From positions 1-37,224 of IMG/VR virus record IMGVR_UViG_2512047041_000009: 37,224 bases of DNA; one strand, written 5' to 3'. Every line of letters begins with the position of its first letter. Within the stretch, counting starts at the first letter, position 1. Position numbers: made by a program. Source of the stretch: a virus (Duplodnaviria; Heunggongvirae; Uroviricota; Caudoviricetes). This document shows positions 12,001 through 15,000 of the stretch, piece by piece.

Positions 12001-15000
12001 AGAAGGCTGGCAACAGATGCAACGCATCTGTTGCCCGGCCAGCATGACAAATAACGAGAAATGAACGTTCGGTTACAGGAGCAGGTACCCACTGTCCTCC
12101 AACAATATTTCATCTTCATATCCGACGGAACAAGACTTACCCTGCCGGGATGTACAGAATAACAACAGAGTGATAATTAATTTCTGATGAAATAATCAGG
12201 GTGCAGAAGGACTAAAGATAAACGTTTTCTTCACGCCTTTACACGGCCTGTCCTTCTCAAATCGCCATTTTGCCATCGCCTTTACAACCTGCTCATCAAA
12301 CAAATGGTGCGGCTCTGAACGGATAAACTCAATTCGGGTGACAGTACCATCAGCACCAATATCAAACTTCACATCAACCCGTCCCTTTATATAATTTGCC
12401 GCTGCATAGGCCGGATATTGTGGTAATGCCTTAACCAACTGTCGGGGCATATCTGTTTTATGTTGCGTACAGCCCATAACCAGAGAAGACAACAAAATAA
12501 TTAACGGAAGATTTCTTTTCATTTTCATTCCCGGCACAGATAAGAATAAGTCTTATTCTAACAATGCCACCCTGTCGATCATTAATCCTCTGCTTAATGG
12601 CAACGACAATTATCCGGCTTAAATCACAAATCAGACACATGACATAACAGGGCTTGCGAGGTAACACATCGTCCGGTTTCTTCCACCATCGCACCGGACC
12701 AGCGACCATGAGGGGACAACGCCGCGCTCCGTTAACGCGGTAAACCCCGGTGTGTATCGTTTTTGATTATCCCCGCACACTCGCGCAGAGGAGTCTCCCT
12801 GTCGGGCTGCGGTCTCTGTTAATGCGGGGATACGGCGACAATACCGCGCATCAGCAAAACTTATTTCAGGCACTGAGTGCGGATATATTCCTGCGCCACT
12901 TCCAGTTGCTTCTGCATCGTCATCAACCGCTCTCTGAGAGTGAAATAATCCCGTTCAGCGGTGTCTGCCAGTCGGGGGCCGGTTGCATTATCCACGCCGG
13001 AGGTGCCGGTGGCTTCACGCACGGTACCGGGGCAGGTGGCGTTGATCCGCAGGCGCTTACGACCAGCGGCAACATCAGCGCGCAGAGTTTCATTTTCAGC
13101 TCTCGCATCGGCTAATTCCCTCGAGTATCTGGCATCAAGTGCAGCAACATCACGCTGGCGCTGCTGCATATCAGTAATGGTTGCATTTGCCAGCTCCAGC
13201 TCTCTGGCTTTTTTATCGCGCTGCGCTTTGTAAGTGATGGCGTTATCGCGGTAATGATTCAGCCCCAGACTAAGCGCACCACAGGCCACCAGCAGAGCAA
13301 TGATGACCACACACAGAACGCGGTTCATTTCACCACCAACGGATTGCCCAGATCAGAACAGCAATGGCTATAATACGAATGGCAAAGGCTGCCGCTCTTG
13401 TTAAATCCAGACAGGCTGGCGTCTCCACTTCAATGCCTTTCATAATGGACAACCTCAGAAAGAATCTTTTATACTTCCTCACAGGGAAAGCACCTCCCTC
13501 ACCATAATTTCTCCCTTGCCTTACTCAAGGTCAGAAAACACAAAACCCCGCTTGCAGCCAACAAACGGGGTTTTTACTTTTATTCACTTAGTTTTTGTCA
13601 GTTCGCAGGATTTCGTGTTATCCGCCCGCGTGGTCATTCCTCATTTTTCAGCAAAATATTCTGCTTATCTGTCGATACCCCAGCACGCCAGCGCGCTCTC
13701 CTGGTCACGACGGGATACCTGACCGTAACAGTTATTTGAGCGAATACGGCAGTCTCTGCCACCGTCCTTAATCCACCAGCGAATCGCTTCGCAGGCACCT
13801 TTTCGATCACCTGCATTAATTCGTCTGTAAAACGTCGACGGGAAACACTTACCGGGACCAATGTTGTACGGACAGAATGACGCGATCCCCGCTTTCTGGG
13901 GTTCGGTCAGCGGCACTCTGATGTTTTTCTCCACCCACGCCAGCGCTTTATCACGCTCAATGGCGTTAACCTGGTCGCATTTTTCCTTCGACAACTTCAT
14001 GCCCGGAACGACAGGTTTGCCATCCACCATGATGGCACCACGGCAGATGGTCCAGATACCTGCACCATCACGGTATGCCGTGGTGTGGTTGCCTTCCTTT
14101 TCATCCAGAAACTGGTCGAGAATGTCAGGCGCAGGCGCACCAGCGGCAATCAGCGCCAGAACGGCAGCCGACAGGCCGTATTTGATTTTGGTGTTCATGG
14201 ATATATTAAATATTCAGCCGCTGTCCCTGGCCCACTAAATACGCACTTTAAGATAAGTCAGCCCCGGATGAAGCCAGTAAGCCGGCACTTTTTTAAAGGG
14301 TGGAGTATTAAAATCACGAAGAAGAGCCTCCCGCACAATTGCATCCTTATCAGCACCACTGGCCAGCGCTTCAATCTCAGCGGCTACCTGAAGATATCCC
14401 ATGCAACGGCCAACGCGCTTCATCAGCCCCTGCTTTTTATTGTTCTTCAGGTAATCAATGGCAAATTCAATGAGCTCCTCACTGTGCTGGTGCGATGGAG
14501 GTGTTACTTTCCCATTTTCTGAGATGGTTATTTTCCCAGCATCACCGGATACAACAAAGGATGGCCGGTTACACTCCCATTCCAGCTCACTGAAATTATC
14601 ATTATGAATACTGAAACACTCTGCGAGATTTCTGCTCATCACTTTCCGACAATAATCGTCAAACGCAGCAAACTGCTCATCGCGGCGTTTTTCTTCAGGC
14701 CGCTGAAGATGCTCTTTCAATCGTGAAGCGCAGCTTAGATGCCCGCGCGATCAAGAATAGCTTCTTTCATTTCATCTGCTGCAAGCACCTCATTTTTTGT
14801 TGGGGCGCTTTTTTTCAATTCAGCGATATAGCGCTCCAGTTTTTCAATACGTGATTCAACATCATCTTTTTCTGACCGCAGTGTTGACGGCGGCATCTTC
14901 AGAGCATCAGTAATTCTTCCCGGTAGCTTTCCTTTGTAGGTTATCAACACATCCTGCGCCTCTAAAATTATGGGGCGCTTTTCCGGCAACGGTTCGTTCC

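Follow-up and report, generated by a model that had tools for sequence, protein, structure and literature searches.

Between the endolysin gene R and the i-spanin gene Rz of the phage DNA analysed here (the window: all 37,224 nt of IMG/VR record IMGVR_UViG_2512047041_000009, a lambdoid, Shiga toxin (Stx)-phage-like prophage) lies a gap of 336 bp, which contains a gene for a 50-amino-acid (aa) membrane protein and, on the opposite strand, a putative small RNA (sRNA) complementary to the start of that gene. We are close to certain that the small gene is real and consider it quite likely that the antisense RNA is real as well. Our preferred reading, held at about even confidence, is that the gap constitutes a self-contained, mobile two-gene module, consisting of a membrane protein and a cis-antisense sRNA, that resembles a type I toxin-antitoxin (TA) pair and is lodged in a lysis cassette of the phage-21-type pinholin and signal-arrest-release (SAR) endolysin kind. 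The gene itself is not a new object, because it is already in databases as a hypothetical protein and within a PHROG of unknown function; what is new here is the 50-aa model, whose start may be dual, a hairpin that always accompanies the gene, an antisense sRNA backed by reads published without annotation, and what appears to be a one-base coupling that recurs with spanin, lipoprotein or endolysin genes.

As pointed out in a first-pass annotation of this DNA, the endolysin and Rz coding sequences, both on the minus strand (Table 1), leave the 336 bp at positions 13329–13664 between them, and this gap holds a strong hairpin as well as a 37-codon open reading frame (ORF) whose TGA (13332–13330) is separated by a single base from the Rz ATG (13328–13326); we could confirm these three observations. 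The accompanying statement that endolysin and Rz are normally adjacent is true of the Qin prophage from Escherichia coli K-12, in which R and Rz overlap directly with no gap, but needs to be qualified: 2005 of 5426 complete E. coli genomes contain the hairpin-bearing half of the gap, a 155-bp block (gap query positions 180–336) that is also present in phage H-19B and in Stx1 and Stx2 phages. The whole gap is present in 673 of these 5426 genomes; it is 100% identical to that of the window in strain AR_0013 and 93.8% identical in prophage Sp4 from E. coli O157:H7 Sakai. The peptide could be ruled out as a known K-12 small protein, Qin being devoid of the gap. The 50-aa form, the assignment of the hairpin to the peptide module and not to the endolysin, and the antisense RNA were all absent from the first-pass annotation.

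Comparisons among relatives, 478 of which were found in a scan of IMG/VR, indicate that the ORF is a gene. Its 37-codon frame is open for 13 further codons, up to a GTG at position 13482, resulting in a product of 50 aa. Over the 37 core codons, two DNA clades differ by 18 synonymous and only 4–6 conservative non-synonymous changes (I/V/L, C/S), with a synonymous divergence (dS) of ~1.6, a non-synonymous divergence (dN) of ~0.06 and a dN/dS ratio of 0.03–0.05; the equivalent ratio was 1.2–8 for the two shifted sense frames and for two of the antisense frames, and 0.12 for the codon-aligned antisense frame. This last frame corresponds to a plus-strand ORF (13364–13507), which we rejected as a real gene in view of its ratio (0.12 versus 0.047) and of the radical replacements that it would undergo. 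The ORF is intact in 78 of 79 short-form copies, and the remaining one shows a read-through of the stop codon. The segment is therefore conserved and structured and bears a gene under purifying selection, which contradicts the proposal that the gap is a scar of rearrangement, and the contrary outcome considered in the first-pass annotation, a lack of conservation with the gap aligning to non-coding DNA in relatives, clearly fails.

The protein belongs to a family that we designate family A and that comprises PHROG 4493, 1115 and 3246, all of unknown function. The 50-aa form matched phrog_4493 along profile positions 1–54 of 56 (E=1.6e-23), a better match than that of the 37-aa form (E=6e-15), and also phrog_1115 (E=1.8e-10), to which a long-form relative was more similar (E=1.4e-42). 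In RefSeq, the gene appears as a hypothetical protein in AR_0013 (WP_000675927.1), in O157:H7 (WP_000675931.1) and in Sakai (ECs_1094), and all the names in the sources are either 'hypothetical' or 'putative transmembrane protein'; databases mostly annotate a 37-aa or 48-aa internal-start form, and record neither the hairpin nor the antisense RNA. The peptide had no match in Pfam, NCBIfam (E<=10) or PADLOC, and a survey of lysis cassettes from Stx phages does not mention the small ORF (PMC8136144). Two scans of the GTDB species representatives, one with the family alignment and the other with a long-form member, retrieved zero confirmed relatives, suggesting that the family is confined to strain-specific prophages. 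Likewise, in a profile search against 1.84 billion representative sequences only 40 clusters matched, none of them a larger relative that would be informative and the few long hits being repetitive, low-complexity matches, which indicates that the family is narrow.

Several features suggest that translation could start at two sites. The upstream start alternates between GTG and ATG, as seen in L013 and L068 (L numbers designate individual loci of the comparison), with one allele per clade, and the RefSeq start is probably mis-called, at 37 instead of 50 aa. Of the family members examined, a single one lacks the internal Met, and the Arg four codons before it is encoded by AGG or AGA in every allele, generating a GAGG or GAGA motif 7–10 nt upstream, while other nearby Arg codons vary (AGG, CGA, CGT, CGC). 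This conservation of both the Met and the AGG/AGA Arg makes a second, internal start plausible, and the gene would then be a dual-start gene whose 37-aa product would lack the basic helix described below. Additionally, an eight-codon upstream ORF (uORF) ends in a TGA that overlaps the GTG start, the Shine-Dalgarno (SD) motif of which is predicted to be paired, suggesting a translational coupling of the uORF to the 50-aa gene. The same SD and ATG that serve the uORF in the window directly open the protein in the long-form subfamily (60 aa; e.g., PhiR12_2), starting with MEKYKRILLRLTMKNG...

A prediction by AlphaFold2, using the family alignment, consisted of a helix at residues 3–15 with five basic residues, a flexible acidic linker (16–22) and a second helix (23–49), with a confidence (pLDDT) of ~91 over the transmembrane half of the 50-aa protein. 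The C-terminus (...WAIRWW) comes immediately after the helix, with only 1–3 residues beyond it. Divergent members maintain the basic N-terminal segment and the pattern Y-[KR]-[KR]-x-F-[RL]-[LM]-R-[LI]-[ST]-M-[KN]-x-G-[LI]-E...A-P...transmembrane helix...[RK]-W-W, in spite of a quite different DNA sequence. Taking the positive-inside rule as the criterion for topology, the model is consistent with a tail-anchored inner-membrane protein with its N-terminus inside, having a basic amphipathic N-terminal helix and a C-terminal transmembrane helix.

The hairpin was the top-ranked terminator-like site within positions 12100–15700, and looks like an intrinsic terminator in both strands (tail UUUUUACUUUU in the plus strand and UUUUGUGUUUUC in the minus strand), the A- and T-tracts at both sides indicating a bidirectional terminator. 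It is found a few tens of nt 5′ of the SD from the family A gene in all of the ~140 loci screened, as 33 unique variants and irrespective of the upstream gene, and even divergent loci (L153, L154 and L155) have it; the hairpin belongs, then, to the small gene. The inner stem shows compensatory changes (TTTG/CAAG, ATTG/CAGT, GCTG/CAG-C, AACG/CGAT), and the RNAalifold consensus of 18 hairpin variants contained 10 pairs, three of them with double compensatory changes. No sigma-70-like promoter with at least 9 of 12 matches was found in the sense strand within 12100–15700, where weak promoters are possible, and the distance from the terminator to the SD, of only ~20–45 nt, is too short for a sense promoter.

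In the opposite strand, a predicted sigma-70-type promoter lies inside codons 3–13 of the small gene and is directed at the hairpin (Table 1). No change in either hexamer was seen among 25 alleles of the short form and the 22 of the long form that were scored, although the third positions of other codons do vary, and the promoter spacer tolerates non-synonymous changes (e.g., R to L or P). Variation in third positions affected 3 of 13 codons in the promoter region versus 24 of 37 in the core, with dS values of 0.30 and 1.6, respectively. A K to N change (AAG to AAT) in L117 and L133, located just outside the hexamer, turns TATACT into the consensus TATAAT, and the divergent locus L155 contains TGGTCA-18-TATACT at the same relative place.

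Published RNA data agree with this prediction. Among the rows listed from Table EV2 of an RNase E-CLASH (crosslinking, ligation and sequencing of hybrids) study of O157:H7 Sakai, there are three plus-strand fragments in the Sp4 gap (1184766–1184813, 1184788–1184842 and 1184841–1184864), labelled there as 'none|unknown' (PMC5286369). The second and third of these form an intramolecular hybrid seen 34 times, with both halves carrying an Hfq-overlap flag, and a representative plus-strand read ends in ...GGGGUUUUU (PMC5286369). We checked the strand convention of the table against minus-strand genes, and the read sequences are those of the plus strand; coordinates were mapped to the window through locus L008. 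Sakai position 1184766 equals 13482 in the window, which is 7 nt 3′ of the −10 hexamer and so exactly at the start expected for transcripts of this promoter, and 1184864 equals 13580, in the U-tract; the read ends thus match the predicted start and terminator to within 1–2 bases. These reads document the existence of the RNA in Sp4, a close relative. Apart from the intramolecular hybrid, the only hybrid among the rows listed is with ribosomal RNA (rRNA). With respect to coordinates, those of the 2014 and 2016 Sakai supplements agree with NC_002695.2 at 1.185 Mb and are ~140 bp lower at 1.78 Mb, so that EcOnc and CLASH positions need correction from NC_002695.1 to NC_002695.2 (L005, L008). From the flags on both halves of the main hybrid, the antisense RNA is probably associated with Hfq.

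The predicted 99-nt RNA folds with a z-score of −3.4, and four versions of it (window, Sakai, clade 2 and L155) behave similarly (z −3.2 to −4.0). It is complementary to the 5′ untranslated region (UTR), to both SD motifs of the leader and GTG, to the uORF and to the first base of the GTG start; its 5′ end being opposite to this base, the RNA is perfectly complementary to the leader and initiation region of the long isoform, while it has no complementarity to the internal SD and ATG. The 25 nt at its 5′ end differ between alleles and always match the start region of their own gene, and the sRNA body (13508–13580) is conserved in ~2000 genomes, some of whose cassettes contain another small ORF. 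That the RNA represses the small gene is a possibility to which we give slightly less than even weight.

We did not find an Rfam family in the gap at either gathering or permissive thresholds, the best score within 13100–13900 being 26.6 bits for the rimP leader (gathering threshold, 47); a match to ohsC in the gap concerned only the terminator (E=7) and was discarded. The Hfq peaks (EcOnc) in Table S2 of Tree 2014 include none in the R-Rz gap of Sakai Sp4, and AgvB and the EcOnc sRNAs were discarded as candidates. The RNA is not AsxR or STnc100 either, both of which are placed by Rfam elsewhere in the window. HnrS was likewise rejected: in Sp9 its locus is 3′ of Rz, and a comparison of the window with the HnrS (EcOnc12) read from the literature gave no match. 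A 91-nt fragment 3′ of Rz (12718–12808) is 97.8% identical to Sakai Sp9 (L005, 3001–3091), in which the site of the HnrS read is ~100 nt further (L005, 3188–3218, minus strand).

The module occurs next to very different genes. Among the 133 loci with an identifiable upstream gene, ~125 have the small gene 3′ of an endolysin gene, from four unrelated families: a SAR lysozyme like that of the window (60 loci), a GH108-like enzyme (46), an M15 enzyme with or without a 116-aa ORF (18) and an R21-like SAR lysozyme (1). On the 3′ side of the short form, the next gene is Rz in 54 loci and one for a 60-aa lipoprotein (PHROG 7528) in 23, with a 1-nt gap in both cases; after long forms come other small transmembrane ORFs, the lipoprotein gene or Rz. 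The stop-N-ATG junction of the window, in which the last codons resemble an SD (Table 1), suggests a translational coupling of the small gene to Rz. In L153, a divergent metagenomic phage, two family A genes, a holin-like ORF, a small transmembrane ORF and an H-19B-type ORF (...RWW) directly precede a SAR endolysin. The first-pass proposal of a small lysis-associated membrane peptide is upheld insofar as this is a conserved small membrane protein whose gene is, in most relatives by far, part of a lysis cassette; the lysis role is guilt by association, and from this genomic context we regard an action of the protein in lysis as conceivable, with somewhat less than even likelihood.

The R-Rz slot is a variable region. 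In H-19B it is occupied by a non-homologous small transmembrane ORF (PHROG 6632, family B), which also ends in IRWW-TGA-A-ATG, and in Sakai Sp9 by an antirepressor gene and, after it, a different small transmembrane ORF (PHROG 4906). The latter (MSDKLITL...LSGLLG; L005 2327–2473 and L009 1698–1829) represents a third unrelated family of small transmembrane ORFs directly before Rz, and follows the antirepressor gene in Sp9 and a long-form family A gene in PhiR12_2; the site just 5′ of Rz is thus repeatedly occupied by single-helix membrane ORFs. Tandem arrays exist in L153 (3001–4185) and L154 (325–737), where each small transmembrane ORF (family A, A-like paralogues and the H-19B-type ...RWW ORF) has its own terminator-like hairpin upstream; that of L153 lies right after the major capsid gene and ends 3 nt before the SAR-endolysin gene. 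A second group of phages has the lipoprotein gene (MTRKHWTHRMPRT...LLVGC..., PHROG 7528) one base 3′ of the small gene (L010 1474–1831, L068–L088; for instance, L072 2474–2831 and L079 2474–2831), in cassettes with two holin-like genes and an M15 or GH108-like endolysin (e.g., phiSTEC1575-Stx2k) and in which no Rz/Rz1 was seen before the terminase gene. The small gene and the 60-aa lipoprotein might there be a substitute for the canonical spanin.

Table 1. Features of the R-Rz gap and of the adjoining lysis genes (coordinates of the window).
Feature	Position	Strand	Basis or remarks
Rz i-spanin	12861–13328	-	Pfam PF03245 Phage_lysis, 5.7e-50
Rz1 o-spanin, embedded in Rz	12923–13108	-	Pfam PF06085, 3.5e-21
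TGA-A-ATG junction, small gene/Rz	13326–13332	-	GGTGGTGA, formed by the last codons TGG TGG TGA, resembles an SD for Rz
Small membrane protein gene, long form, 50 aa, GTG start at 13482	13330–13482	-	PHROG match, dN/dS, start switching
Putative internal-start isoform, 37 aa, ATG 13443–13441 (RefSeq form, WP_000675927.1)	13330–13443	-	Met conserved, SD-like motif
Putative sigma-70-type promoter, TGGACA (13446–13451), 18-nt spacer, TATACT (13470–13475)	13446–13475	+	10/12 matches
GAGG SD-like motif, 9 nt 5′ of the internal ATG	13453–13456	-	Sequence; conserved as AGG/AGA
uORF, 8 codons (MVREVLSL), TGA overlapping the GTG start (GTGA)	13479–13505	-	Conserved SD and start position of the family
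Predicted sRNA, ~99 nt, three stem-loops, A-rich single-stranded stretch, U-tail	13482–13580	+	CLASH reads, promoter, terminator
GGGAGG SD-like motif, 10 nt 5′ of the GTG start	13493–13498	-	Predicted small hairpin with UUCCCU (sense-strand fold)
Hairpin flank, A-tract	13533–13541		
Bidirectional intrinsic-terminator hairpin, AAAACCCCG...CGGGGTTTT	13542–13574	both	14 pairs, 6 G-C
Hairpin flank, T-tract	13575–13589		
Conserved spacer, endolysin stop to terminator	13583–13664		Part of the 155-bp block
Endolysin R, 177 aa, hydrophobic N-terminal SAR-like segment	13665–14198	-	Pfam PF00959 Phage_lysozyme, E=2.4e-24; RefSeq 'lysozyme'
Phage-21-type class II holin (pinholin family)	15228–15443	-	Pfam PF04971, E=9e-33

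Under the reading that we prefer, a 50-aa tail-anchored inner-membrane protein would be made from the strand of the lysis genes, and the internal start may add a 37-aa form. In the late operon of lambdoid phages, Q-modified polymerase reads through terminators. Since a sense promoter was not found and the terminator is located just upstream, the small gene would be expressed only late, upon read-through of the hairpin by the Q-modified enzyme. Its stop codon being one base before the Rz ATG, terminating ribosomes could be passed on to Rz. The promoter in codons 3–13 would fire an RNA of ~99 nt ending at the shared hairpin, and in the lysogen this RNA would block translation of any stray transcripts of the small gene, and of the coupled Rz, or cause their degradation. 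The protein might be a membrane-active helper or timer of the pinholin/SAR-endolysin/spanin pathway, which is a guess. A broader generalization seems unlikely to us: that PHROG 4493 and 1115 proteins form an unrecognised class of lysis-cassette proteins, of ~50 aa, with dual starts, tail-anchored, late-only and silenced by their own cis-antisense Hfq-binding sRNA, i.e., a domesticated type I TA, and that in cassettes without Rz/Rz1 they would form a non-canonical pair for outer-membrane disruption with the PHROG 7528 lipoprotein.

A number of observations weigh against this reading. The antisense promoter is undetectable in the two most divergent loci, L153 and L154, and the scarcity of synonymous changes in the 5′ part of the gene could equally come from the internal SD and ATG. 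The RNA evidence proceeds from Sakai Sp4, a related prophage of another strain in which the sequence is multi-copy, and from the CLASH table rows listed, so that sense-strand reads may also exist at the locus. The N-terminal segment of the long-form subfamily tolerates R to L or P and K to N changes, by which the long isoform may matter less than the core. Outside an obvious lysis context, the gene was found after tail-fibre genes in L155, after a non-lysis gene in L093 and in the short contig L154; the exceptions L155 and L093 indicate that the link to lysis cassettes, strong as it is, has exceptions, and that the unit behaves like a mobile moron able to land elsewhere. Moreover, searches of Pfam, NCBIfam and PADLOC revealed no sequence similarity to holin, antiholin, spanin, releasin or type I toxin families, and literature searches with ECs_1094, ECs1094 and the accession numbers found zero papers.

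An alternative is a type I TA or moron module unrelated to lysis timing, in which a membrane toxin, a superinfection-exclusion or an abortive-infection factor is kept in check by the antisense RNA, the R-Rz location is accidental and the 1-nt junction only keeps Rz translated. The small hydrophobic ORF, the cis-antisense RNA over its ribosome-binding site and the shared bidirectional terminator are all consistent with this, as are the varied genome positions and partners of the module and the repeated units, each with a hairpin and a small transmembrane gene, of L153 and L154; known type I loci also form tandem arrays. Classical type I toxins, however, have their own promoter, and no promoter for a toxin mRNA was found here, with a terminator directly upstream instead. 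Neither was there any match to known toxin families, and close relatives overwhelmingly have the gene in a lysis cassette, as does the divergent L153. In spite of the precedent of hokW-sokW in the Sakai prophage Sp5 (PMC8621323), we therefore consider this explanation rather unlikely. We find it quite improbable that the main product of the gap is a trans-acting, Hfq-dependent sRNA, like AsxR, AgvB, HnrS and StxS from the prophages of enterohaemorrhagic E. coli (EHEC), with a secondary overlap with the gene. In favour of it, Hfq-binding sites coincide with the halves of the hybrid, the RNA is crosslinked to RNase E and contains a U-tail and a single-stranded stretch rich in A, its body is also found in cassettes with other small ORFs, and AsxR and STnc100 are already in the window; nevertheless, it is absent from the Hfq peaks in Table S2 of Tree 2014, its sole non-intramolecular partner among the rows listed is rRNA, and the covariation of its 5′ 25 nt with the start region of its own gene is as expected for an action in cis.

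The ORF could also be a mere translational relay, with a functionless peptide, that restores the delivery of ribosomes to Rz after the insertion of a terminator-bearing segment. The stop-N-ATG junction is indeed kept before both Rz and the lipoprotein gene, its final codons can also act as an SD-like sequence, there is a direct R-Rz overlap in Qin, and non-homologous small ORFs occupy the same slot, including the family B ORF from H-19B with an identical IRWW-TGA-A-ATG end. A dN/dS ratio of 0.03–0.05 over 37 codons is, however, unexpected for a pure relay; besides, the two-helix architecture is maintained in relatives with diverged DNA, and long-form members precede other small genes and not Rz, all of which makes a relay very improbable. 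Least credible of all is a non-coding recombination scar with an ordinary terminator for the end of R and a chance open frame. The slot is a recombination hot spot, containing elsewhere an antirepressor gene, other small ORFs or nothing, and there are homology breakpoints on both sides of the hairpin; but the substitution pattern contradicts this explanation, as do the almost invariably intact ORFs (78/79), the PHROG membership and the linkage of the hairpin to the gene in unrelated contexts.

The module shares several characteristics with hok/sok loci: both encode a hydrophobic membrane protein of up to 50 aa and, as a prediction in the case of the module, a short cis-antisense RNA, transcribed from within or near the 5′ end of the gene and covering the ribosome-binding region, with involvement of Hfq and an RNase, and both occur in prophages. 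In hok loci, mok is a short upstream ORF overlapping the start, which the uORF of the window recalls. Unlike Hok, the protein from the window has its transmembrane helix in the C-terminal and not the N-terminal part, and no similarity to Hok; likewise, its gene has no promoter that we could find, with an apparent dependence on late read-through, and seems to be joined translationally to a spanin gene. With respect to type I TA loci in general, we found the small hydrophobic protein (50 aa, predicted helix 23–49), and neither an own promoter for the toxin mRNA nor affiliation to a described family (Hok, Ldr, Ibs, TisB, ShoB, Zor, DinQ). The hokW-sokW locus from Sp5, also included in this comparison, is reported to help phage release (PMC8621323).

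Dual-start genes are known for holin/antiholin pairs, such as S105/S107 from lambda and S68/S71 from phage 21. The gene from the window similarly encodes a small membrane protein in a lysis cassette, with two potential in-frame starts whose products would differ in N-terminal positive charge, and the holin of the window is of the phage 21 type; nevertheless, its putative starts, deduced from conservation, are 13 codons apart instead of 1–3. We rejected an identity as holin or antiholin, with zero Pfam holin matches, a single transmembrane helix and an RWW end without a charged hydrophilic C-terminal tail; as an i-spanin, with the transmembrane helix at the C-terminus, no periplasmic coiled-coil domain and a canonical Rz/Rz1 next door; and as a releasin, with zero Pfam matches, including DUF2730 down to E=10, and the opposite architecture. 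By analogy, the protein may be functionally like other extra membrane factors. One of these is Lcc6 from the Shewanella phage LambdaSo, a pinholin/SAR-endolysin/Rz-Rz1 phage, in which it is essential for lysis (bioRxiv 10.1101/2024.01.23.576932). It is alike by description (~60 aa, a single transmembrane helix, without known domains), but its helix is N-terminal and precedes a cytoplasmic tail of 43 aa, and its gene is distant from those for lysis. The Mu releasin gp25 (DUF2730; PMC9239132) is also a membrane-tethered small protein acting on a SAR endolysin, the type to which the endolysin of the window appears to belong, although gp25 exceeds it in size and combines a transmembrane helix at the N-terminus with a cytoplasmic domain, and the Mu system has no holin. 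As for the RNA, it is short, terminator-ended and Hfq-flagged, located in a lambdoid late region and with several copies per genome, as are the EHEC prophage sRNAs AsxR, AgvB, StxS/STnc100 and HnrS; it differs in being cis-antisense to a coding gene, and is none of those sRNAs.

Other observations concern the remainder of the prophage. Holin and endolysin genes are usually adjacent; here, two ORFs in the minus strand (14235–15223), of 162 aa (DUF1327) and 161 aa, put ~1 kb between them. The 161-aa ORF had zero hits in Pfam, PADLOC or other searches, and RefSeq annotates a YdfR-family pseudogene at these ORFs in the identical genome. On the other side, 3′ of Rz, the minus strand encodes a 113-aa lipoprotein-like protein (12196–12537) with a TonB C-terminal domain (PF03544, 1.4e-14), at roughly the position that the bor gene has in phage lambda; a strong promoter-like sequence, TTCACA-16-TATAAT (12368–12395, plus strand; 11/12 matches), is antisense to this gene. 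Rfam identified AsxR, STnc100, two transfer RNAs (tRNAs), C4 and isrK in the window. AsxR (plus strand, 18259–18311) abuts STnc100/StxS (minus strand, 18315–18523), with the two tRNAs upstream, in the region 18259–19561. From STnc100 to a gene for a SASA esterase there is apparently too little room for stx genes, and the late region looks like that of an Stx phage without the toxin genes. Finally, the C4 antisense RNA (75 bits) lies beside isrK (62 bits) at 27968–28153 in the minus strand, a pair that we take to be an antirepressor-control (immunity) element of the P1/P7 type.

Lysis of Gram-negative hosts is usually described in terms of holin, endolysin and spanin, and the cases of the Mu releasin and Lcc6 illustrate that extra small membrane factors can be essential for it. 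In Shiga-toxin-type prophages, it is through lysis that the toxin is released. The presence of the module in lysis cassettes of the Stx type, with a conserved protein encoded between R and Rz, makes this protein a concrete candidate for a timing or release factor. Likewise, the list of EHEC prophage sRNAs would gain an unannotated, multi-copy RNA with an Hfq-overlap flag that had been published as 'unknown'. Together, these results support, in its existence and its context, a small membrane peptide of the lysis cassette, with a kinship to type I TA-like pairs and to accessory lysis membrane proteins.

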